A stretch of DNA of 64,000 nt from contig JAXHTS010000055.1 in NCBI GenBank assembly GCA_034190085.1, positions 10,117 through 74,116 of the forward strand, in the 5' to 3' direction. This DNA comes from Spirochaetota bacterium (lineage in GTDB: Bacteria; Spirochaetota; UBA4802; JAFGDQ01). Below the pieces are notes generated by a model, which saw only the letters and a program-made list of their open reading frames with translations, had not been told where the DNA came from and did no database searches. This document shows positions 10,503 through 47,394 of the stretch, piece after piece (positions within the stretch are counted from its first letter, which is position 1; each line of letters opens with the position of its first letter). The position numbers and the translations under genes are program-made.

Positions 10503-11747
10503 CTACATATCACTCTTATCACTAATTCCAACTGCTCTATCCAATTCATTTTGTAGATCAGGGGGGAGACCCTCAATCTCAACATTTAAGAATCCACGCA
10601 CAATAGTTGCCGTGGCCTCTTCCTCGCTTAATCCTCTAGCCATCAGATATTCGACCTCCTCACGCGCGATCTTGCCCACTGCCGCCTCATGAGAGAGATC
10701 AATATCCTCTTTATAGCCCTCCAGCTCAGGTATGGCATGAATCACACCATCATCGGAAAGGATCAATCCCTTACACTCAAGATGTGCCTTTATTCCAGGA
10801 ACCTCCCCAATGATATGACCGCGCGCAATAATCTTCCCGCCCATGGTAATAGCGCGGGAAATTATCTCTGCCCGAGATCCCTTGGCCTTTAAAAAGATCC
10901 TCGAGCCAACATCGAGCTCTGATCCGGGTGTCGCAACCAAAATGGAATTATATCTTGCAGTAGAATTCTCTCCAATCAAATATGTAACAGGATACATCTG
11001 CAGACTATTTACTGGCTGCATACATACATAATTAGACAGAAAGAGCCCTCCCTCCTCTACAATGGTTGCGCTTCGAGGACGCACTGCTACCTCCTCCGCC
11101 CAATTATGAATCATAGTAAATGTAAGCTTTGCATTCTTTTTCACATAAAACTCTGAGATGCCCACATGAAGGCCTGATTTCACATGTGGAGCCACAGCAC
11201 ATCCAGTAATGATATGCAATTCTGAATTCTCCTCTGCTATGACAATATTATGGACATCCTGAATTAGCTTATCCTCATCCAAATATAAACATGCCTGTAG
11301 AGGATATACGGATTTTGTTCCTGGAAGGGATCTTATGAAATAGCCGTTTTCCTGATGCAGTTCCGCTCTGGAGGTGTATTTATCCATATCAACTGCCACT
11401 GCTCTCCACCAATAATCCTCCATCCAATCATACTTCTCTCTGGCATTATTAATTTCCAATATCTCCATCCCCTCTTGAGAGGTGCTGCAATGAAGGACAG
11501 AATGGTCCTTCTGAACGAAGGTACCCGATCTATTCTGTTCCGTTATGTCCACACCCGCTCTTAGCAATTGTTCCTTCTCAGTGGAAGAGAGTTTAGATAA
11601 ATCATCCAAATATTGATGTTCTACTGTGGTATCTATATAATCATCTACTAGAATATCACTGCCATAAGTAGCCACTTTATCTTTTGCCCCTTCTGCAAGG
11701 TTAACATTATCTTCCTTTTCAGCATGTTGAATCTTCCTTTTACTCAT
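10503..11747 (-). CDS. Fe-S cluster assembly protein, SufB/SufD family
   Basis: 414 aa with the C-terminal SufBD beta-helix region, located directly downstream of sufC. Ends with a TAG stop, which shows TAG is a normal stop in this genome. Confidence 0.75.
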   Translation of the reverse strand: MSKRKIQHAEKEDNVNLAEGAKDKVATYGSDILVDDYIDTTVEHQYLDDLSKLSSTEKEQLLRAGVDITEQNRSGTFVQKDHSVLHCSTSQEGMEILEINNAREKYDWMEDYWWRAVAVDMDKYTSRAELHQENGYFIRSLPGTKSVYPLQACLYLDEDKLIQDVHNIVIAEENSELHIITGCAVAPHVKSGLHVGISEFYVKKNAKLTFTMIHNWAEEVAVRPRSATIVEEGGLFLSNYVCMQPVNSLQMYPVTYLIGENSTARYNSILVATPGSELDVGSRIFLKAKGSRAEIISRAITMGGKIIARGHIIGEVPGIKAHLECKGLILSDDGVIHAIPELEGYKEDIDLSHEAAVGKIAREEVEYLMARGLSEEEATATIVRGFLNVEIEGLPPDLQNELDRAVGISDKSDM

Positions 11748-30934: not shown

Positions 30935-32398
30935 TTATAAAATATCATCATGGCAATCAATACACTCGAAATCATCAGCATCAGGATGACAAGTGGCACA
31001 TTCAATTAGTGTATTACCTCCATCCAGGTTTTCACCGTGGCATGTTCTACAAGTATCCGGAGATATATGAAACCCTCCATGCTGCCATCCACCCCCAGGC
31101 TCCTCATGATGACAACCGATTACATCACAAGATTTGTTGACAAGCCCTCCATCAAGATCCTGTCCATGACAACCCTTGCAGATTCTTGACTCCTGAGGGT
31201 ATTTAACACCATGAGTTGTCCCATCCCAGTCGTTATGATGGTGACAAAATGTACATGAGACTAATGTGTCGCCTCCATTCAGGTCATTGCCGTGACACTC
31301 CTTACAATTGTCAGGATTATCCGCAAAAGCCTCCCCATGAGTGCCTTCCCAACCGCTATGATGACAGGGAGCACAAGATTCATTCACCGAGCCTCCCTTT
31401 AGATCCTGTCCATGACAGCCCTGGCAGATACCAGAGTCCTGTAAATATTTAACGCCATGAGTTGTCCCATCCCAGTCGTTATGATGATGACAAATAGTAC
31501 AAGAGACTTGCGCTAAACCTCCATTCAGACCACTGCCATGACATGCCATGCAGACCTCATGCTTCTGTATATATTCAACACCATGCTGTGGGTCTTCAGG
31601 ATCACCCCAGACATGATGACAATATAAACACGAATGTTCTGAATCGCCAGGCCTTAGCCCAAAATCTTCCCCATGACAATCCTTGCAACTGTCAGGATTC
31701 TCTGTAAAAGCCTTACCATGCTCCGTTGTATCATTACTCCAGTCTGAGTGATGACAGGACAAGCAGGAAAATTTTACTGGCCCTCCAATAATATCACTAC
31801 CGTGACAGCCATCACATACATCTCCTTCTGCTGAATAATCATCTCCATGCTCCTCTAACCAATTGCTATTCCCTTCACCATGATGACAGGAGAGACAGGG
31901 TAGCTTAATGATCCCCCCCTTCAGGTCTTGCCCATGACATCCAAAACAAACCATCGATTTATCTATAAACTCGTCTCCATGCTGGGGATCGCTAGGCATT
32001 CCCCATGGGTGATGACAGTCTATGCATGACACCCCTGATTGACCACCATCAAAATCCTCCCCATGACAGGATATGCAATTGTAGGGATTTTCATTGAACT
32101 TTTCACCATGCACAGAATCTTCACCTCCCCATTCCATTGAAGTATGGTAACGACTTCCATCTAATCCATCCGGAAGAGATTCAGTCTGACACCCGATAAG
32201 GATGTAAGCAGATATTATAAAAATTGCAGTATAAATTGATGCTCTGCTAAAGAAGCAATAGATAGATAATAAAAAATATTTTTTAAGGTTATTGTTACTG
32301 CATCGAAATTTCAATAGATTACACAGGATTAATTTATTATTAATTTGCACTAAATTAATCCATGATGGAAGGGTTATTCTATCTCTCATTTCTCTCAC
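30935..32398 (-). CDS. Multihaem c-type cytochrome lipoprotein (about 18-19 haem sites), tandem dihaem repeats
   Basis: 18 CxxCH motifs plus one CxxxxCH (CDVIGCHH), arranged as about nine CxxCHG / CxxCHH pairs. A lipoprotein-like signal (YILIGC) is present. The true start codon is uncertain and may be a TTG or GTG inside the annotated N-terminus. Confidence 0.8.
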   Translation of the reverse strand: MREMRDRITLPSWINLVQINNKLILCNLLKFRCSNNNLKKYFLLSIYCFFSRASIYTAIFIISAYILIGCQTESLPDGLDGSRYHTSMEWGGEDSVHGEKFNENPYNCISCHGEDFDGGQSGVSCIDCHHPWGMPSDPQHGDEFIDKSMVCFGCHGQDLKGGIIKLPCLSCHHGEGNSNWLEEHGDDYSAEGDVCDGCHGSDIIGGPVKFSCLSCHHSDWSNDTTEHGKAFTENPDSCKDCHGEDFGLRPGDSEHSCLYCHHVWGDPEDPQHGVEYIQKHEVCMACHGSGLNGGLAQVSCTICHHHNDWDGTTHGVKYLQDSGICQGCHGQDLKGGSVNESCAPCHHSGWEGTHGEAFADNPDNCKECHGNDLNGGDTLVSCTFCHHHNDWDGTTHGVKYPQESRICKGCHGQDLDGGLVNKSCDVIGCHHEEPGGGWQHGGFHISPDTCRTCHGENLDGGNTLIECATCHPDADDFECIDCHDDIL

Positions 32399-32889
32399 CT
32401 GATATAAAATTTAGAGTGAAGGTTACCTTGGTTATTATTTATAATTTATTGAAATAATTTATAATTTCAGAGCTAACATTGACGTGACTCATTGTTAACA
32501 AGATAATTAATAGCACAAACATACGTCAATCTAATTTTATAAATTAATGAAAAACATAAATATACATCCTCATCCAGCTTCACATAAACTGTTTAAGATG
32601 AACTTTGTCATAGAGAACTAAAAGCTTATAGTTTATATAATTCTATTTGTGGCTATTCAAAAAATTGTGTAGATAGTAATAATGAAACTTCTCAAATAGC
32701 GCCATCATCCCCCCCTTTAACGGCGATTATGGCACTTCCCTTAGTATTTAATGGAAATCTACACAATATTGGATTAAAATTGAGGTGTATTATTGTATTT
32801 TTCGATCAAATTGAAGAAAGTGTACTATATCTTTCTCCAGCCTTGAAGTAGAGGGGCATTACCTCCCCTGAAAGGCATAATTCAGAAAA

Positions 32890-33114
32890 TTATTTTCCAC
32901 ATTTCGTACATGAATTACATGAGGAGCCCCCTGAACAGGAGCTATCACCAAAGGATGTGTCTCCACCCTTAGTCATAAAACCCAATCCGCCGGTAATCAA
33001 CCGCTTAATCATACCATTGCAGTCAGGACACTCTTCAAGAGGATCGTCCTTAATTCCCTGATAAAAGTCAAAACGTCCATTACAGGATGAACACATATAT
33101 TCGTATGTTGGCAT
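32890..33114 (-). CDS. FmdB-family zinc-ribbon protein
   Basis: MPTYEYMCSSCNGRF...CPDCNG matches the FmdB/CxxC...CxxC zinc-ribbon pattern, with a Gly/Ser/Cys-rich tail. Confidence 0.7.
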   Translation of the reverse strand: MPTYEYMCSSCNGRFDFYQGIKDDPLEECPDCNGMIKRLITGGLGFMTKGGDTSFGDSSCSGGSSCNSCTKCGK

Positions 33115-33348
33115 ATATTCCCCGCTTAATTATGATTTAGTAATATAAGCATTCTGTTAACTTACTTATTGATAGAAAATAGATCTAACCTACAAGATGA
33201 ATTCCTCAGAAACTCCTATATTATAAGATATAGTCCTATTAAATGGAGTTACTATTTTATTATGATAAAATTACAATTTTTTCAAGCTTTTTTCAATTCA
33301 ATAAACAAGAACCAATAGGAATGAATATGATATTATCTTAAAGAATGA

Positions 33349-34491
33349 TTAAAAGCGACCGGCTCTATGAGCGCTCTTGTGTATACTATCATATATAAAA
33401 ATAAATCGCTCTCTCAGTTCATCAATTCCTATTCTTTTTATAGCGGAGCCAATTATGGGATAGGGGTACCTATTCATGATGAATTCCCTTACACCGCAAT
33501 TTTGTAGAGAATCTATCTTATTAAAAAACATAATATTAGGCTTGTTCAGGCATTCAAGTGCCAACAATTCGTTCTCAACAGTTTTAATATTATTTTCTAT
33601 GTCTCTTGAAGTTATATCGATCAGGTGAATCAAGAAATCCGCATTTTGAATCTCTTCCAATGTTGATTTGAATGACTCTATCAGGTTAGCTGGCAAATTT
33701 CGAATAAATCCAATAGTATCTGTGAGCAATATCTTTTTCCCATGATCAAGGAATACCGTTCTTGTGAAGGCGTCCAATGTTGCAAAGAGCCTATTTTCAA
33801 CAAATAGATCATCCTTGGCAAGTACATTTATCAAAGTGGATTTGCCTGCATTGGTATATCCAACTACTGCCCCCAATATTTCACTGGATCTTGATTTTCG
33901 GATAAGGCTTCTATGTTCAGCTATCTTTCTTAATTCCCTATCCAACTTTGATATTCTTCTCAGTATATGCCTTCTATCAGTTTCAATCATCTTTTCGCCA
34001 GGGCCTCTAGTTCCGATTCCTCCACCCAGTCTGGACAAGGCGCCGCCAAGTCCCTTTATTCTTGGTAGAATATACTTCAACTGTGCCAATTCAACCTGTA
34101 TTTTTGCCTCAGCGCTTCTCGCCCTCTGAGCAAATATATCCAATATCACCTCAGTCCTTCCTATAATCCTGCATTTCAGCAATTCCTCAAGATTTCTAAC
34201 CTGAGCAGGCCTTATTTTATTCAAATCGAATACAATCAGGCGTATTCCCTCCCTGATTACAATATCCTTAAGCTTGTCAAGATACCCCTTGCCAATGATA
34301 TGGGCAGGATCAATTTTCTTCCTCTTAATAATTGTTGATTCAATAATAACCGCTCCAGCAGTAGACACTAGGAGATCAAGTTCTGCAAGGGAATCCTCAA
34401 CAGCCTTAATATCCTGACCATCTGTCACTATGCCTATTAGAAAGGCCTTTTCGTCAACAGATGACGGAATTCTATTTACCGATGCATCCAT
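33349..34491 (-). CDS. hflX: GTPase HflX
   Basis: HflX N-terminal domain plus G-domain (VGYTNAGKSTL, DTIGF, NKID). Confidence 0.85.
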   Translation of the reverse strand: MDASVNRIPSSVDEKAFLIGIVTDGQDIKAVEDSLAELDLLVSTAGAVIIESTIIKRKKIDPAHIIGKGYLDKLKDIVIREGIRLIVFDLNKIRPAQVRNLEELLKCRIIGRTEVILDIFAQRARSAEAKIQVELAQLKYILPRIKGLGGALSRLGGGIGTRGPGEKMIETDRRHILRRISKLDRELRKIAEHRSLIRKSRSSEILGAVVGYTNAGKSTLINVLAKDDLFVENRLFATLDAFTRTVFLDHGKKILLTDTIGFIRNLPANLIESFKSTLEEIQNADFLIHLIDITSRDIENNIKTVENELLALECLNKPNIMFFNKIDSLQNCGVREFIMNRYPYPIIGSAIKRIGIDELRERFIFIYDSIHKSAHRAGRF

Positions 34492-34984
34492 TCAATATCA
34501 ACTTACAACCTACAGTAATTTTATTCTCACTAAACCAGCCCTTATTTACCTCCAAGACATATTGCGCGGGCAAAAGGGAGGGATAAATGATCGAAGTATC
34601 CAATGGTTTCATATAGTATATCTCATTTATAACACCATAACGGTTTATAAATGCTATATCAAGTGGTATAAATGTATCCTTCATCCAAAAGTTGCGTTTT
34701 TCTTCTTTTCTGAAAACAAACAACATGCCGCTATTCTTTTTGAGCATTTTGCGAAACATTAAACCCCTTTTTCTGCTTTCAAATGAATCAGCAATCTCAA
34801 CCCTTAAAAATACAGGCTCGTTATTATTATTGATTATTGAGATATTACAAAACCTATTTTGCTGAGCGATTGTGCTATTAGATAAAAAAAGCACAAAAAA
34901 CGTCAAATAAACTATTTTAATGAAGGATTTTAACGATAATCGAGGTCTCTCTGGAATGCAGTGAGGATATACTAAAAATTTCAT
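34472..34984 (-). CDS. DUF192 family secreted protein
   Basis: Signal peptide followed by the DUF192 pattern (RGLMFR...GMLFVF...FWMKDTFIPLDIAF...YVLEVNKG). Its 3' end overlaps the hflX start by 20 nt. Confidence 0.6.
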   Translation of the reverse strand: MKFLVYPHCIPERPRLSLKSFIKIVYLTFFVLFLSNSTIAQQNRFCNISIINNNNEPVFLRVEIADSFESRKRGLMFRKMLKKNSGMLFVFRKEEKRNFWMKDTFIPLDIAFINRYGVINEIYYMKPLDTSIIYPSLLPAQYVLEVNKGWFSENKITVGCKLILNGCIGK

Positions 34985-35019
34985 CCTTAAATATTGACAT
35001 TCATGTGAATTGGAGATAT

Positions 35020-35781
35020 TTAGAATTCATCATTATACTCAATCTTAATGATCCTGTTAGCGCGGTCCTGCTTTTGCAGCAATATAGCAAACTCAATTCC
35101 AAGGTGATTGAGATATGTATATCTTAAACCAATATTCAATAACCATTCATCAGGCCTTGAGAAATCATAGTATATTCTCTCGCCCTCTGATTTGAAAATA
35201 ATAGATTCCCCCAGTGGAATGTCAATCGAAATATAATATGATGAGTTTTCAGGAATATAATCGGGTTGTGTAGGCACCCTCATCCCAAAATGAATATGCT
35301 GTTCATCAAATAGCAGGTAAATGGGTTTTGTTATTACAAAGTATGGGCCATATATCATTCTATTCAACTCGTTCTGGTAGTTAGTAGTCTTCCCTTCCCT
35401 TCCAATATAAAAGGAATCGTAACCTATTGCAAAAGAAACAGGAAAGGGTTCCCACCCATCTGATATTTTCAGTTTAGCAATCACTCCTGGAACATTCGGC
35501 TCAGCATTATCCTTGCCTATGGCGTTTTGTATATCCAGAGAAACCCCAAAGAAGATATTATCATGAATGCCAATAAATGTCTTTAATTCAACCCCGCCAT
35601 TATCATACCCAAGAAAGGATACCTGATAGGTTCCCCTGTCAATTGTATAGGCAGTGGGTGTATCAATGACTCTAGTGTTTCTTATATATGATGCATCAAG
35701 GGAAATACTGGAACAAATGAATATAATGATTGATAATAAATATAAAATAGGTTTCTTCATATTCATTGGTCTTGATTTCAT
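35020..35781 (-). CDS. Hypothetical secreted protein, probable outer-membrane beta-barrel
   Basis: Signal peptide, alternating hydrophobic beta-strand pattern, and a C-terminal aromatic residue (...EYNDEF). Confidence 0.45.
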   Translation of the reverse strand: MKSRPMNMKKPILYLLSIIIFICSSISLDASYIRNTRVIDTPTAYTIDRGTYQVSFLGYDNGGVELKTFIGIHDNIFFGVSLDIQNAIGKDNAEPNVPGVIAKLKISDGWEPFPVSFAIGYDSFYIGREGKTTNYQNELNRMIYGPYFVITKPIYLLFDEQHIHFGMRVPTQPDYIPENSSYYISIDIPLGESIIFKSEGERIYYDFSRPDEWLLNIGLRYTYLNHLGIEFAILLQKQDRANRIIKIEYNDEF

Positions 35782-37453
35782 GTATACCGAACCATCTCTG
35801 ATATTGTATTGGAAAGAAGAATAGATCCCTCTTCCCTCAACATTGGCTGAGAGAAGATGATCTTTTCACAAATCAAACAAAAGATATTAAAACTTGCCTT
35901 CTCGGAGATTGATGTGCAAGGCTTATATATATTATCGGATTTTTTTTCATCTGAAATAAAAAAATCTCAAGATTAGATGATTAAATCTTATAAAATATAT
36001 AATCATCAGTATTGACGGTGAGAATCACATTATTGATGGAAAAATTTCCAATTTAACTGAAAAGCTACATCTATATGTCAAATTTACTGATAGCAAAATG
36101 GTAAAAATCATACAAATGAAAAGGTAGTGGCATGTGTAATCTTCTGAGAGAGTTTATACCTAGCGGAAAGGAAGTTGGACAACGAAGGGTCTGAATAATC
36201 ACTAAACAATGGTTTGTGACTGCTGAAAAAGTAGACAATAAATACAGTTATCCACACTCTCATGCCTGCGTTATGAGGTTCCTGTATTCGCAGTGGAGAC
36301 ACCACTGTCCCCCCTGGGTATGTAGGAGTCTTTATTAAATAGAATCATTATGCGATTTAAGCATTCTCAAAACCTGCCCCTGTACATACAGGTGAATGAC
36401 TTCTATGAATGATAAAAATTAACCCATCTCAATCCCTAACTTGATGAGCAGTTAGGATGGTTTTTAAAACTTTAATAAATTTTATTTGACAAATATTGAT
36501 ATATCAAATATATAACATTCAATGTTTTATAAAAGCTAATCAATTTTGCATCTTCAACATTTTACAACTATAAATATCCAATCAACAATACCTAATTCCC
36601 ATTATCTATGATAATAATAGTGGTTATCAACAATTTCCTTTATGACTAGTCACTCTCCCCCTTCTTCTTTGAAAAGGGGTAAAGATAGGTTATTCTGATA
36701 GTTTTACAATAAGACATAATCCAGATTTCCTTGAGTTGAAAACAACATTAAACGTGCATTGCGATTCCATCCTTTCGACTCTCGGCTAAAAATAAAGGTA
36801 AGGGATTTATTCAACGCTTATTTCAGTAAAGTTTAATAAATATAGAAAGATCTGAAGTCTCAGAAGACTTTTTCCATCTCCCTTCCCAAGTGGAGCAGGC
36901 GTTATGCGCATTTGAAATGTACATCAATATGGAAATATTATTTTCTTTTCTTAACTTAGCCTAGTTGAGTGCAAACATTTATCCCCAATGATATAATGAA
37001 AAGAAATAAAGATGGACTAATTATCAGATGAATATGGATTGGATAATTAAACTCCACTTCTATAATATTTTTCTTGTATTATCGCTGATATGAGTTATAC
37101 TACAAAGGTTTCAATAATTTTGTAATAACCAAATTATCATTAAGCTCTATTTCAGCAAACATAGATAGCTCTTAATTATATTCAATTTAGCATGAATACT
37201 TTATGGATATCAAATGAGTAGTTTTAAATCTATCCATAACAGGATGACAAAACATTAAGCGGATCTAATAAATCTCCCATCAGGAATTTTAAATATAATA
37301 TAATTTCCAATGAAAAATTGGAATAACCTTTATTAAAAAGGAGGTGAAAAGATTATAGATTTTGCATGATCTAGAACCGAATAAATAAAGGTTTTCTTTA
37401 ACAAAAAGATATCAGCAAAATATATTAATAAAAAATCATTTCGGAGGTATAGG

Positions 37454-38884
37454 ATGAGAAACAAAATACTACTTGTATATTGTTTTGTATTGATCATGGC
37501 AGTTGTTCAGAACACACTTTTGGCTCAGGATATTGAAAAATAGCGCTATCACATATCTGGGTTTATGCAGACCATATATATACAAATTGATCCTGCTGCT
37601 GAAGAGAGTATGATGGAAACTATACAAACAAATTCAAACAAAAATGGTGCATTCATGCAGAGCGATCTGAATCTCTATTTTACCTTCTTTATCGATGAAG
37701 GCTGGAAGGCCTTTAGTGAAGTTGCCTTCCTTTACACACCAACAAGAGAATTAAATGTAGAGCCTGAGACAACCCAGGTCATAGACTCCACTACTGGCGA
37801 GGTAACCCTATATTCAACTGGAAATATGATCGGAACGCCCTATGATACATCTTACATGACCCCAACATTCTCACTTTCTAAATATGGCGCAATTGAAATT
37901 GAACGCGCATATATTGAATGGAACAAACTGTCCTATGCTAATCTACGCTTTGGTCGCTATTTCACCCCCTTGGGGATATGGCAGCGCTATCATGGAGCGC
38001 CAGTCGTAACAAGCGTGCGCCTCCCTATAATGGTAGTTTCAGCATTGGGAGGAACCGGGATGCCAACGTCCAAAACAGGGGTAGAGTTACTTGGGAAAGT
38101 TGATATTGCAGACACATTAATCGAGTATGCTGCCTATGTAGAGAATGGCATATCCGAGGCTGATGCGCTATATGATGACAATGCAAATAAGGCTGTTGGT
38201 GGGTTCCTAAATTTTAAGCTTCCAACAATCGCTGGCAGAATAGATGTTGAGTTTGGCGGCTCAGGTTATTATGGCAAGCGAACACATATCTCGCAAAAAA
38301 CCTATTTGTTGGCTATAGGGACATCAGACCTATTGGATTCAACTAATCTAAATAATATTGTTGTAACAATGGATTATGATCCTTCACAAGATGAATACGC
38401 CGCTGAGCAATGGGACACAATGGCACTGGCTCATCTTAAACTCTCCATAGCATCACTACCCCTTGATGGCACCTTCATCCTACAGGCTGAAGGTGTGCAT
38501 CAAGGGAGTGACAGGGATGATGATAGTAGAATTGTAAATTCAGTTCACGGCTATAGTGTACAGGAAGATGATATGAAGTATTACTCCTATTACGGACAGG
38601 TGGAATATCAATTCTATGGTAAACTTACTCCCTATTTTAGATATGAAATTACTAATCGAGATACTGATATAGCACAGGATAAGATATTAACCAAAAATTC
38701 AACAATGTATGTAACAGGTCTAAATTATAAGCCAAGGCCAAAGGTTGCCATAAAGGCGGAAACTATTATTGCTGATCTGGATAGCGACGTTGGCAACATG
38801 GCTAATCGTTGGGATCCAACAAAAGATGAAAAGATGAATAATGATATGATTATCTATATGGGATCAATATCAGTAGCTTTTTAA
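37454..38884 (+). pseudogene. Outer-membrane beta-barrel protein (OprO/P-like porin family?), array copy 1, with an in-frame TAG inside the signal peptide
   Basis: A good RBS (GGAGGT) plus the ATG at 37454 encodes the signal peptide MRNKILLVYCFVLIMAVVQNTLLAQDIEK. An in-frame TAG follows at 37541-37543, and the same frame then continues as RYHISGFMQTIYIQ..., which aligns with copies 2-4. The intact ORF resumes only at the Met at 37565 and lacks a signal peptide. Confidence 0.6.
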
Positions 38885-38904
38885 TTCTAAAGGGAGGTTT
38901 AAAC

Positions 38905-39339
38905 ATGAAGAAGAAAAGTATAAAGAGTCACTTAATATTATCTCTTATCCTTTTGGCAGGGACATTCACCATAGGACTGCATGAGGCTCCTGCTCAGGAT
39001 GACGTTGTTGTGATAGCGAATAATAGCAAGGGCTCGCTTAATGCTAGTCAGATAAAACGCATCTTTAATGGTGATGTTACCAACTGGCCTGATGGAGGTG
39101 CTGTCAAGGTTTTGCTGAACAGCAATCCCGGCATAACAGAGCAATTCTGCTCAAAGTACTTAAACACAACGCCTTCCAAACTGGATTCGTCATGGGTAAA
39201 AAAGAGCATACGGGACGGCACACCTACCCCGCGCAAGGTTGCCAGCAATGTAATAGTTACCATGGTGAGCAACTCGCCAAAGTTTATAGGATTTGTCAAA
39301 AGGTCAGAGGCGGGCTCCTCTGTAAAAATTATTGATTGA
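38905..39339 (+). CDS. Small secreted protein resembling a partial PstS/PBP-like domain (array partner S1)
   Basis: Signal peptide, then QIKRIFNGDVTNWPDGG, which resembles the (L/I)xxIFxGxITNW hinge motif of PstS-family periplasmic binding proteins. At 144 aa it is about half the size of a full PBP. It lies 20 nt downstream of the large gene. Confidence 0.6.
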   Translation: MKKKSIKSHLILSLILLAGTFTIGLHEAPAQDDVVVIANNSKGSLNASQIKRIFNGDVTNWPDGGAVKVLLNSNPGITEQFCSKYLNTTPSKLDSSWVKKSIRDGTPTPRKVASNVIVTMVSNSPKFIGFVKRSEAGSSVKIID

Positions 39340-39445
39340 TGTATTGTTGGAATATGGAGCTAGGAAATCACATTCTTCATGTGAATATCCAATGCACTAT
39401 AAATAATAGCTTAAAGCAATAAACTACAAAATTTGGAGGTAATTT

Positions 39446-40885
39446 ATGATGATGAAGCATTTACTATTATTGGTCAGCATAGTACAGCTTATCATTAGCA
39501 CCCACAGTATGCTTTTTGCTCAATTGATGATGGAAGAGGAGAAACGATTTCATATATCCGGATTTATGCAGACCATATACATACAATTAGATGTAGAGTC
39601 AGAAAATAGCATGTTAGAATCAGTCCAAACAAATGCAAACGAAAATGGAGCATTTGTGCAGAGTGATCTAAATCTTTATTTTAGCTTCTTCATCGATGAG
39701 GGCTGGAAGGCCTTCAGTGAGGTTGCCTTCTGTTACAAGCCAACTGGAGAACTTGATATAGAGCCAGAGACAACCCAGGTAATAGACTCCACTACTGGCC
39801 AGGTAACCATTTATTCTACAGGAAATATGATTGGGACGCCTTATGACACTTCATACATGACCCCAACATTCTCACTTTCTAAATATGGCGCAATTGAAAT
39901 TGAACGCGCATATATTGAATGGAACAAACTGTCCTATGCTAATCTACGCTTTGGTCGATATTTTACCCCCTTTGGGATATGGCAGCGCGATCATGGAGCG
40001 CCAATCGTAACAAGCGCGCGGCTCCCTTTAATGGTAGTCCCGACATTAGGAACAACCGGAATGCCTAAAGCGCAGACAGGTGTGGAGCTACTTGGATCAA
40101 TTGATGTTGCAGACACATTAATAGAGTATGCTGCCTATGTGGGGAATGGGATATCAGAAGCTGAAGCGCTATATGATGACAATTCAAATAAGGCAGTTGG
40201 TGGATTTCTAAACTTTAAACTTCCAACAATCGCTGACAGAATAGATATTGAGTTTGGCGGTTCAGGATATTATGGCAAGCGAACATATATCTCTCAGAAA
40301 ACCTATTTATTGGATATAGGAACATCAGACCTATTGGATTCAACTAATCCAAATAATATTGTTGTAACCATGGATTATGATCCCTCACAAGATGAATACA
40401 CAGCTAAGCAATGGGACACAATGGCACTGGCCCATCTTAAACTCTCCATAGCATCACTACCCCTTGATGGCACATTCATCCTACAGGCTGAAGGTGTGCA
40501 TCAATGGAGTGACAAGGACGATGATATTAGAATTGTAGACTCAGTTCACGGCTATAATATACAGGAAGATGATATGAAGTACTACTCCTATTACGGACAG
40601 GTGGAATATCAATTCTATGGTAAACTTACTCCCTATTTTAGGTATGAGACTACTAATAAAGATACTGATATAGCACAGGAGAAGATAATGTCTGAACAGA
40701 CATACATGTATGTAGTAGGTATCAATTACAAGCCAAGACCAAAGATTGCGATTAAGGCAGAAGCTAATATCGTAGATATGGAAACCGACACTGCCAACAT
40801 GGCCAATTATCTGGATCCTACAAAAGATGAAAAAATAAATAATGATATGACTGTATATGTTGCGTCAATATCAGTAGCTTTTTAA
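39446..40885 (+). CDS. Outer-membrane beta-barrel protein (OprO/P-like?), array copy 2
   Basis: Signal peptide (MMMKHLLLLVSIVQLII...AQ). Paralogous to copies 1, 3 and 4 and ends in ISVAF. RBS TTGGAGG upstream. Confidence 0.7.
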   Translation: MMMKHLLLLVSIVQLIISTHSMLFAQLMMEEEKRFHISGFMQTIYIQLDVESENSMLESVQTNANENGAFVQSDLNLYFSFFIDEGWKAFSEVAFCYKPTGELDIEPETTQVIDSTTGQVTIYSTGNMIGTPYDTSYMTPTFSLSKYGAIEIERAYIEWNKLSYANLRFGRYFTPFGIWQRDHGAPIVTSARLPLMVVPTLGTTGMPKAQTGVELLGSIDVADTLIEYAAYVGNGISEAEALYDDNSNKAVGGFLNFKLPTIADRIDIEFGGSGYYGKRTYISQKTYLLDIGTSDLLDSTNPNNIVVTMDYDPSQDEYTAKQWDTMALAHLKLSIASLPLDGTFILQAEGVHQWSDKDDDIRIVDSVHGYNIQEDDMKYYSYYGQVEYQFYGKLTPYFRYETTNKDTDIAQEKIMSEQTYMYVVGINYKPRPKIAIKAEANIVDMETDTANMANYLDPTKDEKINNDMTVYVASISVAF

Positions 40886-40903
40886 TGCTAAGGGAGGGTT
40901 AAC

Positions 40904-41338
40904 ATGAAAAAGAAAAGTCTATTTAATTACTTAGTTCTTACTCTAATCCTTCTTACAGGAACATTCATCATAGGAGTGCATGAGACTCCTGCACAGGATG
41001 ATGTTGTTGTGATAGTAAACAATAGCAAGGGCTCGCTTAGTGCCAGTCAGATAAAGCGCATCTTTACTGGCGATGTCACCAACTGGCCTGACGGAGGCAC
41101 TGTTAAGGTTTTGCTGAACAGCAACGCCGGCGTAACAGAACAATTTTGCTCAAAGTACCTTAACACTACGCCTTCCAAACTGGATTCGTCATGGGTAAAG
41201 AAGAGTATACGAGATGGTACTCCAACACCACGCAAGGTTGCCAGCAATGTAATAGTAACCATGGTGAGCAATTCGCCCAAGTTTATCGGATTTGTTAAGA
41301 GGTCAGAGGCAGGCTCCTCTGTGAAAATTATTGACTAA
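40904..41338 (+). CDS. Small PstS-like secreted protein (S2)
   Basis: Paralog of S1; the C-terminal 65 aa are identical. Confidence 0.6.
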   Translation: MKKKSLFNYLVLTLILLTGTFIIGVHETPAQDDVVVIVNNSKGSLSASQIKRIFTGDVTNWPDGGTVKVLLNSNAGVTEQFCSKYLNTTPSKLDSSWVKKSIRDGTPTPRKVASNVIVTMVSNSPKFIGFVKRSEAGSSVKIID

Positions 41339-41452
41339 TGTGTAGGGGGAATAAGGAGTTAGGAAATTCATGATTTATCATTTGAATATCCTATACTCTT
41401 AAATCTAAATAGCTTTAAGCAAAAAAAATTACAAATTTTGGAGGAAATTTAG

Positions 41453-42883
41453 ATGAAAAAGTATTTTCTTTTATTAGTATATGGATTGTTTCTCACCTTA
41501 GGCATTCAGGGGATGCTTTTTGCACAGTTTATGGAAGAGGAGAAACGGTTTCACATCTCCGGGTTTATGCAGACAGTCTATATGGACATCAATTTTGATT
41601 CCGATGAAAATATGATGTCTGCCTTAGCGCCACAGCTAAATGATAACGGATATTTTGTACAGAGTGATCTCAATATCTATTTTACATTCTTTGTTGATGA
41701 TGGATGGAAGGCTTTTAGCGAAATAGCATTTCGATACACACCCACTGGGAATATTACAATTGAGCCAGAGACAACCCAGGTAGTAGATGAAACTACTGGC
41801 GAGGTAACCCTGTATTCAACGGGAAACATGATAGGAACCCCCTTCGATTCATCCTATATGACGCCCACATTTTCGCTATCCAAGTATGGTTCAATAGATA
41901 TTGAACGAGCCTATATAGAGTGGAATGAATTGTCTTATGCTAATCTCCGCTTCGGACGTTTCTTTACCCCCTTTGGGATATGGCAGCGTGATCATGGCGC
42001 TCCTATTCTCACGAGTATACGACTCCCAATGCTAGTACAGCCGCCATTGCCAGGATTGGGAATGCCCAAGGCACAGACAGGCGTTGAGCTTGTTGGAACA
42101 ATGGATGCTGGCACATTGATTGAATACATGGCATATGTAGGGAATGGTATATCTAATGCTGATGCGTTATATGATAATAATAAGAATAAAGGGGTAGGAG
42201 CCTTTTTGAATATCAAGTTACCCACAATTGCTGATAAGATCGATCTTGAATTGGGAGGTTCAGGGTATTATGGCAAGACAACACATATATCCCAAAAAAC
42301 CTATTTGTTGGATATAGGCACATCTGATCTCTTGGATTCTACTAATCCCAATAACATTGTTGTTACCATGGACTACGATCCATCACAAGATAAGTATACT
42401 ACCAAACAGTGGGATACAATCGCCCTTGCACACCTGAAATTAAGCATTAGTTCGCTACCCTTTGACGGCACATTCGTCTTACAGGCTGAAGGGCTGCACC
42501 AATGGATGGACAAAGATGACGATCCTAGAATTGTAGATTTAGTTCATGGCTATGCCGTTCAGGAGGATGACGCTAAGTATTATACCTATTATGGTCAGGT
42601 TGAATACCAATTCTATGGCAAAATTGCTCCCTATTTTAGATATGAAATAATGTCTCTAGATAGTGATATAGCACAAAATGTTGTTTTACTGGAAAATTCG
42701 ACCATGTATACAATGGGGATAAGCTTTAAGCCCAAACCAAGAATAGCAATTAAGATCGAAAGTATAATAGTTGATATTGAAACTGATTTCGGCAACATGG
42801 CCAACCTATCGGATCCGACCAAGGATGTAAAAATGAACAATGACATGATATATTATTTGGCTGGAATCTCAGTTGCATTTTAA
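41453..42883 (+). CDS. Outer-membrane beta-barrel protein (OprO/P-like?), array copy 3
   Basis: Signal peptide, paralog, C-terminal ...ISVAF. RBS TTGGAGG upstream. Confidence 0.7.
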   Translation: MKKYFLLLVYGLFLTLGIQGMLFAQFMEEEKRFHISGFMQTVYMDINFDSDENMMSALAPQLNDNGYFVQSDLNIYFTFFVDDGWKAFSEIAFRYTPTGNITIEPETTQVVDETTGEVTLYSTGNMIGTPFDSSYMTPTFSLSKYGSIDIERAYIEWNELSYANLRFGRFFTPFGIWQRDHGAPILTSIRLPMLVQPPLPGLGMPKAQTGVELVGTMDAGTLIEYMAYVGNGISNADALYDNNKNKGVGAFLNIKLPTIADKIDLELGGSGYYGKTTHISQKTYLLDIGTSDLLDSTNPNNIVVTMDYDPSQDKYTTKQWDTIALAHLKLSISSLPFDGTFVLQAEGLHQWMDKDDDPRIVDLVHGYAVQEDDAKYYTYYGQVEYQFYGKIAPYFRYEIMSLDSDIAQNVVLLENSTMYTMGISFKPKPRIAIKIESIIVDIETDFGNMANLSDPTKDVKMNNDMIYYLAGISVAF

Positions 42884-42896
42884 TTAAGGAGGTAAC

Positions 42897-43331
42897 ATGA
42901 AAAATACAAATAGAATTACTCGTCTTCTCTTAATATTAGTTATGATGGCAGGAACCTTCATATTAGGATTGCATGAGGTTCCTGCTCAGGATGATGTTGT
43001 TGTGATAGCGAATAACAGCAAGGGCTCGCTTAGCGCTAGTCAGATAAAACGCATCTTTAATGGTGATGTTACCAACTGGCCTGACGGGGGCGCTGTCAAG
43101 GTTTTGCTGAACAACAACTCTGGCATAACAGAGCAATTCTGCTCAAAATATTTAAACACTACGCCTTCCAAACTGGATTCGTCATGGGTAAAAAAAAGCA
43201 TACGGGACGGTACTCCAACACCTCGCAAGGTTGCCAGCAATGTAATAGTAACCATGGTGAGCAACTCACCCAAGTTTATCGGATTCGTTAAGAGGTCAGA
43301 GGCGGGCTCCTCTGTGAAAATTATTGACTAA
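42897..43331 (+). CDS. Small PstS-like secreted protein (S3)
   Basis: Paralog of S1 and S2. Confidence 0.6.
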   Translation: MKNTNRITRLLLILVMMAGTFILGLHEVPAQDDVVVIANNSKGSLSASQIKRIFNGDVTNWPDGGAVKVLLNNNSGITEQFCSKYLNTTPSKLDSSWVKKSIRDGTPTPRKVASNVIVTMVSNSPKFIGFVKRSEAGSSVKIID

Positions 43332-43420
43332 CGGTAATGAAAACCTAAAGATTTAGGGATTTATGAATCTTCATTTAAATACCCTATGCTCTTAAAACCA
43401 TAACTTGGAGGAAATATTAT

Positions 43421-44848
43421 ATGAAAATCTTATTTGGTCTAATCGTATTGCTGCTTACTTTAAGCACTCAAAGCATGCTTTATGCTCAGTATATAGAAGA
43501 AGAAAACCGATATCACATCACTGGTTTTCTTCAGACAGTTTATATAGATTTTGATTTCGATTCAGATGATAATATGCTATCTTCCATATCGCCATCACAA
43601 AATGATAATGGCAATTTCGTACAGAGTGATCTCAATCTATATTTTACATTTTTCGTTGATAAGGGTTGGAAGGCCTTTAGCGAAATTACCTTTCGTTACT
43701 CACCGACTGGAGAAATTGAAAAGGAACCAGAGACTACCCAGGTAGTAGATGATTCTACTGGCGAGGTGACCCTGTATTCAACGGGCAATATGATAGGAAC
43801 CCCCTTTGATTCATCCTATATGACACCCACCTTTTCTCTCTCCAAGTACGGTTCAATAGACATTGAACGCGCCTACATTGAGTGGAATGAATTATCCTAT
43901 GCCAATCTGCGTTTCGGACGATATTTTACTCCCTTTGGAATATGGCAGCGTGATCATGGCGCCCCCATTCTCACCAGCATAAGACTTCCCATGCTGGTGC
44001 AGGCACCAATTATAGGAATTGGGATGCCAAAGGCGCAGACAGGTGTTGAGCTTGTTGGGTCAATGGATGTAGCAGGCACATTATTTGAATACATGGCCTA
44101 TGTCGGGAACGGTATATCAAATGCTGATGCCTTATACGATGATAATAAGAATAAGGCGGCAGGTGGTTTTTTAAATATTAAGCTCCCCACAATCGCAGAT
44201 AAAATTGATCTTGAATTTGGGGGTTCAGGGTATTATGGCAAAACTACAATAATATCCCAAAAAACTTATCTGTTGGATATCGGTACATCTGATCTCTTGG
44301 ATTCAACTAATCCTAATAACATTGTTGTAACCATGGACTATGACCCATCAAAGGATGAATACACTAAAAAACAATGGGATACAATCGCCCTTGCGCACCT
44401 GAAACTCAGCATAGGTTCACTGCCCTTTGACGGCACCTTCATTTTACAAACTGAAGGGCTGTACCAATGGATGGACAAAGACAACGATAATAGAATTGTT
44501 AATTCAGTTCATGGCTATCCTGTACAGGAAGATGATGCCAAGTATTACACCTATTATGGTCAGGTTGAATACCAATTTTATAACAAAATAGCCCCATATT
44601 TTAGATATGAATATATGGCCATGGATACTGACATATCGCAAACTTCAATAATAATTGAATCATCGAATATATATATTATTGGGATGAACTTTAAGCCCAA
44701 GCCAAGAATAGCAATAAAGGTTGAATGTGATATAGTAGATATGGAATCTGATGTCGGCAACATGGCCAATCTATTAGACCCGACCAAGGATGTTAAAAGG
44801 AACAATGACATGGTCATATATATGGCCGGGATATCAGTTGCATTTTAA
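43421..44848 (+). CDS. Outer-membrane beta-barrel protein (OprO/P-like?), array copy 4 (no small partner)
   Basis: Signal peptide, paralog, C-terminal ...ISVAF. Followed by a palindrome rather than an S gene. Confidence 0.7.
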   Translation: MKILFGLIVLLLTLSTQSMLYAQYIEEENRYHITGFLQTVYIDFDFDSDDNMLSSISPSQNDNGNFVQSDLNLYFTFFVDKGWKAFSEITFRYSPTGEIEKEPETTQVVDDSTGEVTLYSTGNMIGTPFDSSYMTPTFSLSKYGSIDIERAYIEWNELSYANLRFGRYFTPFGIWQRDHGAPILTSIRLPMLVQAPIIGIGMPKAQTGVELVGSMDVAGTLFEYMAYVGNGISNADALYDDNKNKAAGGFLNIKLPTIADKIDLEFGGSGYYGKTTIISQKTYLLDIGTSDLLDSTNPNNIVVTMDYDPSKDEYTKKQWDTIALAHLKLSIGSLPFDGTFILQTEGLYQWMDKDNDNRIVNSVHGYPVQEDDAKYYTYYGQVEYQFYNKIAPYFRYEYMAMDTDISQTSIIIESSNIYIIGMNFKPKPRIAIKVECDIVDMESDVGNMANLLDPTKDVKRNNDMVIYMAGISVAF

Positions 44849-44865
44849 TAAAGACAACCAGATAA

Positions 44866-44899
44866 GCAATAGTGATTAATTCGAATTAATCACTATTGC
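44866..44899. other. Perfect palindrome (about 16-bp arms, TTCGAA centre) downstream of the array; terminator-like
   Basis: GCAATAGTGATTAATTCGAATTAATCACTATTGC. Confidence 0.5.
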
Positions 44900-45663
44900 T
44901 TAGTTCTAATCCTACTGGCAGGAAAATTATTTATTGGATTGCAGGATAACGAGGTTAAGAATTCTTGTTGATTTTAGTTTTATTTTTATTGGCTTAACTG
45001 TATACTTTATCAAAATAGAATTTAACTTAATCAAGTTAACTGAGTTTTCAGCAATATTTAATAATACTGATAAATCACGCTTATGCATCAAGGTGATTAT
45101 AATATTATTGATATTGACAATAGTCAATTATCTATAATAAAATTAAATTTTATTAGAAGAAGTGTTACTGTGGATACTATACTATATTTTTATAATTTCA
45201 TTACCCCCTAAATATACTAAATCAATAATAAATGTTACATTGTGAACATTAAACCTTCCTCAAGCTTTATTGGAGAATTCACAGATACAACAAAGTAATT
45301 CTAAAACATTCGCATTTATTTTATCTATAAATTTTATGATAAAATTTATATAAAAGTCCTATTGAAATGATCAGATAGCATCTCCAGTATCCGTGGTTGT
45401 TTCATGAATATATATTAAATTACTTGTGATTCTTTATTTTAAATAATAATGAATCACATACTATAAATTTGTATAATTATAACATCTCAAAAATTACCAT
45501 AATCCCCACCAGCTACTGGGTTTATGGTAATTTCCCTGCAATTTATTGAGAACTTACTTGTATTTTTTTTTTTACTATAAAAATTACTTGTAACTATTTA
45601 AAATTTAGTGCATTATAAATTATACAAATTAAGCAATATAATCTATTATTTAGGTATAAAAAC

Positions 45664-47394
45664 ATGAGCATCTCGTTAAATATGTTTAAAAAAATGAGAA
45701 TTAAGGCGAAACTCTTTTTTGCTTTTATTCTCATTCTTCTGCCAGCCACTATTATATTGAGTGTTGGCGCATACGTCTCACACATTAACTCGAGACATGC
45801 ACTATTAGTCAAAGAGACAAATTTACCAAATGCCCTATTATTTATTGATATTGAAAAAGATGTAATCATGATTCAAGATTGGCTCACGAATGTAGCCTTA
45901 ACAAGGGGAGCAAAGGGCTATGATCAAGGTTTTGATGAAGCCCAAAAGCATTATAACAGTGCGATCAATAATGTTGACAAATTGATCGAAAAGTTCCAAA
46001 ACACACCTGATGAGTTGAAAGAGATTGAGCAGATGAAGGCGAATCTTAAAAATTATTATGATGTTGGCAATGAAGTGGCCCATGCCTATCTTGAAGGCGG
46101 CTCAGAAGCGGGCAATGCGATGCTGGACGTCTTTGTTGTTGTTCGCGATAAGTTAAATAACATACTGAGCAGGTACCGAGATAATCAAACTCAAGAATTG
46201 ATAAACACAATTGGGAATATCCAAAAGGATCTGGATAACACAAAAATTACTAATATAATATTTGTATTTGCATTCTTTCTCTTTGGCTTTATAATCGTTC
46301 TTTTTATGGCAAACAAGATAGTTCGCCCAATAATTTCGGTTAATACAAAGCTTAATGATATATCAAACATTGATGGCGACTTAACCGCTAAACTCTTAAT
46401 TGAATCAAAGGATGAGTTAGGAGAGATGGCTAAATCCTTCAACACCTTTGTAGATAAGATCAGAAACGTTATCAAAGAGGTAAAGGATTTCTCAAAAAAT
46501 CTGGCCACCTCCTCTACAGGTATTGCGAAAGTTACAGATACCTTTTCAATGAATATCCAAAGCCAGGCAGCCTCCTCGGAAGAAATTCATTCAACAATTG
46601 AACAAATTTCCGCAAGCATGGATTTAATCTCTAACAGGGCTGGAGATCAATTCCAGCAGATGAATTCATTAATAGAACAGATGCAGGGCCTCTCTAAAAT
46701 TATAACTAATATGAGTAGGCGGATTGGAGAGGCGATGTCCTTAGTTGAAGATATTTCATCATCTGCAAAATCAGGGAGTAGTTATCTTGACTATATGAAT
46801 GAAAGCATGAATAAGATTAGCAACAGTTCCTCGAAAATAACAGACATCGTTAACATCATCAATGATATTTCTGATAAAATAAATCTATTGTCGCTAAATG
46901 CTGCCATTGAAGCTGCGAGAGCAGGTGATGCTGGAAGAGGTTTTGCGGTTGTTGCTGATGAAATATCAAAGTTGGCTGATCAAACGGCCGTTAGCATCAA
47001 AGACATAGACCAATTAGTAACAACCAATGATAAAGAGATAACTAAGGGAATGAAAAACGTTACAGATACAGTAAATATAATTAGCAAAATAATTAATGGA
47101 GTCAAATCCATTAATGAGATGATGAATAATATCTCTACAGATATGACAAACCAATTGGAAAGGAATGATTCTGTTAATAATGAAGCTATCAACGTAAAAA
47201 ATAAATCTGAAGAGATCAGATACGCAACTGAAGAACTAAAAATAGCTGTTGACGAAATCTCCAAGTCCATATCAACCATTACTGAATCAACACAGATTAC
47301 TTCTACTGGAGCGGAGAACATCGCGACAAATACTAAACAAGCATCTGAAATGACAGAAAATCTTAATAAATTAGTGGACTTCTTTAAAACATAG
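45664..47394 (+). CDS. Methyl-accepting chemotaxis protein
   Basis: N-terminal TM, a periplasmic/four-helix region, a second TM, a HAMP domain, and the MCP signalling domain ([26 protein letters not shown]). The start is probably the Met at about 45685. Confidence 0.85.

Follow-up and report, generated by a model that had tools for sequence, protein, structure and literature searches.

A premature in-frame TAG very probably makes the first gene of a four-copy tandem porin array in a Spirochaetota bacterium a young pseudogene

Analysis of the window (the whole stretch of 64,000 nucleotides from contig JAXHTS010000055.1 of the Spirochaetota MAG GCA_034190085.1) revealed four tandem porin paralogues, which extend from copy 1 (37454-38884) to copy 4 (43421-44848). 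Each of the four spans 475 to 479 aa, and all of them end in Phe. In units 1 to 3 of the array, the porin gene is followed after 13 to 20 nt on its 3' side by a small partner gene, the product of which has a signal peptide and a weak match to PBP_like_2 (PstS-type); unit 4 is without this partner. A Sec signal peptide is joined to the barrel in copies 2 to 4, whereas in copy 1 a TAG codon lies between the two. Three further paralogues with about 43% identity are encoded outside the array in the same MAG (locus tags SVZ03_*). A tblastn search with the family detected no degraded extra porin copy in the 1.67-kb gap upstream of the array or past copy 4. The features of the locus are listed in Table 1.

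Table 1. Features of the tandem porin array, in positions of the window
Feature	Position	Strand	Remarks
Shine-Dalgarno sequence GGAGG	37443..37447	+	6 nt 5' of the copy 1 ATG; GGAGG also precedes copies 2 to 4
29-codon ORF, signal peptide and 5 linker residues of copy 1, MRNKILLVYCFVLIMAVVQNTLLAQDIEK	37454..37540	+	LLAQ motif and layout common to copies 2 to 4 and the family
In-frame TAG, premature stop of copy 1	37541..37543	+	Sense in the paralogues; also present in Logan contig SRR24907504_28896
Rest of porin copy 1, 446 codons and TAA	37544..38884	+	Same frame, no other stop or frameshift
GenBank ORF SVZ03_11165 / MDY6934762.1, 439 aa	37565..38884	+	Starts within beta-strand 1, lacks the signal peptide
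144-aa PBP_like_2 partner of unit 1, intact	38905..39339	+	Strongly constrained
Porin copy 2, 479 aa, intact, closest paralogue of copy 1	39446..40885	+	PF07396 match; structural model
144-aa PBP_like_2 partner of unit 2	40904..41338	+	
Porin copy 3, 476 aa, intact	41453..42883	+	Logan contig L001 identical
144-aa PBP_like_2 partner of unit 3	42897..43331	+	
Porin copy 4, 475 aa, intact, no partner gene behind	43421..44848	+	

In the 1.67 kb upstream of the array (35782-37453), no ORF exceeds 65 aa, Rfam gave no match, and remnants of porin or PBP-like genes are absent. The locus tags on either side are SVZ03_11155 (a gene for 253 aa at 35020-35781) and SVZ03_11165 (copy 1); the skipped tag, SVZ03_11160, indicates an annotated feature in between. 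A promoter-like TTAACA-17-TATATT is positioned at 37398-37426, upstream of copy 1; a scan for promoter and terminator consensus sequences gave nothing above shuffled expectation. Comparison of the copy 1 flank and signal-peptide codons (37380-37540) with 39372-39530, 41380-41540, and 43350-43500 revealed hardly any relationship at the DNA level (14 to 55% identity), and the spacers before copies 2 and 3 are alike (45 to 75% identity). The region ahead of copy 1 is apparently that of the array as a whole. The DNA behind copy 4 (44849-45663) contains a perfect 38-bp palindrome at 44864-44901 (AAGCAATAGTGATTAATTCGAATTAATCACTATTGCTT) and then an AT-rich spacer of ~750 bp, which extends to a chemotaxis-receptor gene at 45664-47394.

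The Pfam scan was run on copy 2, to which copy 1 is 79% identical. Copy 2 matched PF07396 (Porin_O_P) with 24.8 bits at a gathering cut-off of 20.9, over residues 342-458 only, in the C-terminal third of the protein. The AlphaFold model of copy 2 is an all-beta barrel of moderate confidence (pLDDT 67, pTM 0.65), with low confidence in the loops, in which strand 1 comprises residues 35-50 (RFHISGFMQT...). Searching the PDB with this model by Foldseek retrieved porins only, namely, OmpT, MOMP, chitoporin, OprP (2o4v), OprO (4rjw), OmpF, and PorB, including 16-strand porins, with E values of about 1e-12 and TM scores of 0.45 to 0.69. A profile search of the PDB sequences with the porin family gave no match. 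The array porins resemble OprP/OprO (PF07396) and the 16-strand general porins in the Pfam pass of copy 2, the predicted barrel, the N-terminal signal peptide, and the C-terminal Phe. They differ from the solved porins in that the sequence identity is only 7 to 14% and the Pfam match is confined to the C-terminal third, and from OprP/OprO in that they are paired with a 144-aa PBP_like_2 gene, a pairing that is also found in a distant Spirochaetes MAG. Only 16 relatives were found by a word-indexed search of 5.8 billion proteins. A profile search performed without the word index returned 2,307 cluster representatives at E <= 1e-3, which indicates that the porin superfamily is broad.

The sequence at the start of copy 1, read directly, is ...ttcGGAGGtatagg ATG(37454) AGA AAC ... 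GAA AAA TAG(37541-37543) CGC TAT CAC ATA TCT GGG TTT ATG(37565) CAG.... The first-pass annotation had reported a good ribosome-binding site and an ATG at 37454 that opens a 29-aa signal-like ORF, followed in frame by a TAG at 37541-37543, and the sequence bears this out: 87 nt, or 29 codons, separate the ATG from the TAG, and GGAGG is in place ahead of the ATG. Translation of 37454-38884 in one frame yields 477 codons with one internal stop (MRNKILLVYCFVLIMAVVQNTLLAQDIEK-stop-RYHISGFMQT...SISVAF-stop). The translation across this stop reads MRNKILLVYCFVLIMAVVQNTLLAQDIEK-stop-RYHISGFMQTIYIQ...GSISVAF-stop. Beyond the TAG, 446 further codons follow in the same frame and end at TAA 38882-38884. 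A second stop or a frameshift was looked for along the 477 codons, and neither was found; the Shine-Dalgarno sequence, the ATG, and the signal-peptide ORF are intact. Homology to copies 2 to 4 resumes past the TAG, as had been proposed: this part can be aligned over its whole length with copies 2, 3, and 4 (79, 69, and 69% identity, respectively), and tblastn of copy 1 (37454-38881) against copy 2 gave 78.9% identity. In the DNA alignment, the paralogue codons opposite the TAG are GAG/GAA/AAA/AAC, all of them sense codons, within an E-E-(E)-K/N linker. In eight further homologues, this position is occupied by K, N, Q, E, or D. The ancestral codon at 37541-37543 was probably GAG, AAG, or CAG, each of which is one substitution away from TAG.

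The mechanically generated ORF list contains at copy 1 only the 439-aa ORF that starts at ATG 37565, and GenBank gives the same product as MDY6934762.1, a "hypothetical protein" of 439 aa with no pseudogene flag. MDY6934762.1 is an N-terminally shortened gene model caused by the premature stop. It is extremely unlikely that the GenBank model is right and that the 439-aa protein is functional, with the upstream 29-codon ORF as a separate leader peptide. The gene callers of NCBI and Logan both choose ATG 37565, and re-initiation is possible at a distance of 21 nt beyond a stop, which is where this ATG lies. However, no Shine-Dalgarno sequence precedes ATG 37565, and the product would begin within predicted strand 1 and, as the first-pass annotation had already stated, lack an export signal. 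All homologues from the word-indexed search are full-length (15 of 15), and in the 11 whose N termini were inspected (copies 2 to 4 and eight others) the N terminus is invariably a signal peptide. Moreover, the "leader" has a layout that is clearly homologous to that of the copy 2 to 4 signal peptides.

The same N-terminal layout is found in the four copies and in eight more distant members of the family. It consists of a signal peptide ending in ..[LF]-A-Q, an acidic linker of variable length, and the motif x-[RK]-[FLY]-x-[IL]-[ST]-G-F, which opens beta-strand 1 in the copy 2 model. The presence of this layout in all twelve sequences indicates that the alignment of copy 1 with its paralogues around the TAG is not due to chance. 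According to the (-3,-1) rule, by which the cleavage site was placed, cleavage of the copy 1 signal peptide probably follows LLA(24). The TAG would then correspond to about residue +6 of the mature protein, ~5 residues past the predicted cleavage site and directly before the conserved Arg. The stretch in which it would fall, the variable acidic linker just ahead of beta-strand 1, shows the lowest conservation in the protein. The initial placement of the TAG inside the signal peptide is therefore to be corrected: with the predicted cleavage site, the codon lies just after the signal peptide, in the linker.

The TAG was also examined in a second assembly. Logan contig SRR24907504_28896 (6,426 bp), which was reached via the neighboring 253-aa gene, aligned to 31457-37882 of the window with 0 mismatches and 0 gaps, the TAG included. 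It reads GAAAAATAGCGCTAT at the site and ...ggatattgaaaaaTAGcgctatcac... over the wider stretch. The gene call on this contig is a 106-aa partial product from ATG 37565. The contig ends where copies 1 and 2 become identical, as would be expected of a de Bruijn assembler. The Logan contigs for copies 3 and 4 are also identical to the window (L001 corresponds to copy 3). The presence of the same TAG in the second assembly argues against an assembly or consensus error; the first-pass annotation had listed a sequencing error as an alternative. SRR24907504 very probably fed the MAG too, so that this would be an independent assembly of the same data, in which bubble popping would hide a minority sense allele. 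Around the TAG, the 5' end of copy 1 shares 42 to 72% identity with the other units and is the most copy-specific segment of copy 1. Since this end is copy-specific and no other copy has a TAG, cross-copy chimerism cannot create the codon. A run of five A residues precedes the TAG; slippage there would shift the frame, yet the frame is unchanged. The repeats around the TAG are short matches at chance level, and no homopolymer or repeat that would point to slipped-strand phase variation was found. An assembler artefact as the source of the TAG is unlikely.

A wider form of this objection, in which the TAG either arose by error during sequencing or consensus building or is an allele of a minority or of a particular strain that became fixed in the MAG consensus while copy 1 is intact in most cells, is improbable. 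In its favor, the sequence comes from a MAG, the assembly of tandem paralogues is difficult, and the Logan contigs break within the porin array. When JGI metagenome contigs were scanned for the TAG site with the codon set to NNN, there were 0 matches, and thus no other copy of the site, and the contig from run SRR24907505 (L006) ends near window position 36481, ~1 kb short of the TAG. Nor did copy 2 retrieve a relative from the GTDB representative genomes. The literature search on runs SRR24907504 and SRR24907505 found no paper by accession, and a general search gave nothing relevant. Against this objection stand the agreement of two assemblers on the base, the flawless alignment over 6.4 kb, the exclusion of chimerism by the copy-specific 5' end, and a surplus of radical replacements in other parts of copy 1, which does not depend on the TAG base.

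The distribution of replacements among the four copies was compared at sites where the other three copies agree. Copy 1 has 26 such private replacements, and copies 2, 3, and 4 have 9, 15, and 15, respectively. Ten of those in copy 1 have a BLOSUM62 score below 0 (e.g., G98R, D179Y, G230E, P299L, and W351G), compared to one in each of the other copies. Eight private replacements of copy 1 are located in family-conserved columns, among them G98R, D179Y, Q207K, G230E, and W351G, compared to 0, 3, and 2 in copies 2, 3, and 4. The copy 1 excess was significant in a binomial test weighted by the share of terminal-branch dS (p = 4e-5), as was the contrast between the private replacements of copies 1 and 2 (26 versus 9, p = 0.006). 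Pairwise dN/dS was 0.255 for copies 1 and 2 and 0.14 for copies 3 and 4. Over the whole gene, polarised replacements (39 versus 25, p = 0.10) and the N/S contrast (Fisher p = 0.15) showed no significance, and the synonymous changes were symmetric (17 versus 20). The surplus of radical replacements in copy 1 suggests that constraint on this copy may be relaxed. Approximately 4.6% of random substitutions in copy 1 would create a stop. The ~17 excess replacements would correspond to ~2% neutral divergence since constraint was lost, over which ~1 to 2 stops would be expected. Alternatively, the excess at conserved sites could stem from a functional divergence of copy 1, or from gene conversion that homogenised copies 2 to 4. 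The presence of one stop, the absence of a frameshift, and the intact Shine-Dalgarno sequence, ATG, and signal-peptide ORF fit a young lesion.

The use of TAG as a terminator was analyzed in the 47 long ORFs of the window, 29 of which end in TAA, 10 in TAG (21%), and 8 in TGA. TAG-ended genes include those whose products match a Pfam family up to its last profile position, i.e., methylmalonyl-CoA mutase (512/512), SufBD (232/232), nitroreductase (167/167), and S18 (52/52). The claim of the first-pass annotation that TAG is a real stop in this genome, for which it had cited the SufBD gene (10503-11747, TAG-ended), agrees with these counts. No tRNA gene was found within the 64-kb window, and no Rfam family matched 35000-46000 at E <= 1, so no known recoding or regulatory RNA is present there. 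None of eleven other homologues, including six paralogues from the same genome, has a stop at the position of the copy 1 TAG. Because TAG is common as a stop, no tRNA or Rfam match was detected, and the compared homologues lack a stop at the corresponding codon, programmed recoding of the copy 1 TAG is not supported. Copy 1 resembles genes with programmed UAG recoding (by pyrrolysine or a suppressor) in having an in-frame UAG within an otherwise intact ORF. It differs from them in that its UAG is a normal stop codon and is not conserved, no tRNA is nearby, and the gene does not encode a methylamine methyltransferase. A UAG conserved among homologues and a rarity of UAG as a stop, which would be expected of such recoding, are both absent here, and no tRNA-CUA is encoded in the window.

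A leaky or recoded stop, at which readthrough by a near-cognate or suppressor tRNA or insertion of pyrrolysine would yield a full-length exported porin and the TAG would act as an expression throttle, is nevertheless conceivable, and several observations bear on it. Since homologues carry K, N, Q, E, or D at the linker position, whichever residue was inserted there would be tolerated. As the stop lies in a nonconserved linker, even rare readthrough would yield a normal protein, and the downstream ORF, the Shine-Dalgarno sequence, and the signal peptide are all intact. The base directly after the TAG is C, which in Escherichia coli provides a comparatively weak termination context. However, background readthrough of stops in bacteria is typically well below 1%. 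In addition, TAG ends conserved housekeeping genes here, the window contains no tRNA, the stop is not shared by the eleven other homologues, and constraint on copy 1 appears relaxed rather than maintained. Taken together, a leaky or recoded stop is very unlikely. It is likewise highly improbable that the TAG is maintained as a "leaky stop" or a reversible off-switch that keeps copy 1 silent. If it were, gene conversion from the neighboring copies or altered suppression could reactivate copy 1, which would give a free-living spirochaete a way to vary its porin repertoire.

The partner gene of unit 1 is intact and under tight constraint (dN 0.011 to 0.027 and dS 0.44 to 0.62 for the mature part). 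For every pair of partner genes, dS is 0.44 to 0.62, and the last ~65 residues are identical; dS between the porins of units 1/2 and 3/4 is about 2. This difference in dS indicates that either gene conversion has homogenised the partner genes or they are of more recent origin than the adjacent porins. The C-terminal block of the partner is nearly invariant also in homologues at 64 to 72% identity. The first-pass annotation had placed copy 1 in a recombining family; the homogenised appearance of the partner genes lends this weak support. The structure model of the 144-aa partner (pLDDT 48) was too poor for use. In a distant Spirochaetes MAG (JAFGBT010000025.1; L002, 8001-9918), a porin homologue with 35% identity is followed 10 nt downstream by a 144-aa gene. 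From these sequences, the porin and the small PBP-like gene look like a conserved two-gene module.

Altogether, the TAG is very probably a real nonsense mutation and copy 1 a nonfunctional paralogue, i.e., a young pseudogene in a four-copy tandem porin array. The pseudogene was one of the options named in the first-pass annotation, and it is favored by the recovery of the TAG in the second assembly together with the excess of radical replacements in copy 1. The term "fresh" used there is better replaced by "young," as the excess replacements suggest roughly 2% neutral divergence. In the proposed course of events, ribosomes would start at the intact GGAGG and ATG 37454 and terminate at the TAG, ending at 37543, and the 29-residue hydrophobic signal-like peptide would be discarded. 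Any re-initiation at ATG 37565 would produce a barrel protein that lacks both the signal peptide and the initial residues of strand 1; such a protein would be unable to reach or insert into the outer membrane. The loss of copy 1 would be tolerated because six paralogues remain, namely, three in tandem and three or more elsewhere in the genome. The unit 1 partner is translated from a start of its own and is still constrained; the ~1.3 kb of untranslated message may lower its expression via polarity.

Copy 1 is comparable to young pseudogenes in bacterial multigene families of outer-membrane proteins. As in those families, a single premature stop is found beside intact paralogues, the remainder of the ORF is open, the expression signals are intact, the gene is redundant, and gene callers report a shortened ORF. 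There is no difference in kind; copy 1 is located in an uncharacterised Spirochaetota MAG and is unflagged in GenBank. In this redundant family of tandem porins, copy 1 is most likely a nonsense pseudogene of the ordinary kind or, at the most, a null allele at strain level.

For the annotation, this means that SVZ03_11165 should be recorded as a pseudogene or as a 476-aa gene with an internal stop. Copy 1 also illustrates how gene callers mask nonsense pseudogenes as N-terminally shortened ORFs. Beyond annotation, the stop is of little importance. The number of functional porins counted in this MAG should be lowered by one. Separately from the TAG finding, the array, with four porin-fold genes, three of which have a PBP-like partner, would be a sensible object for functional studies of solute uptake in Spirochaetota.
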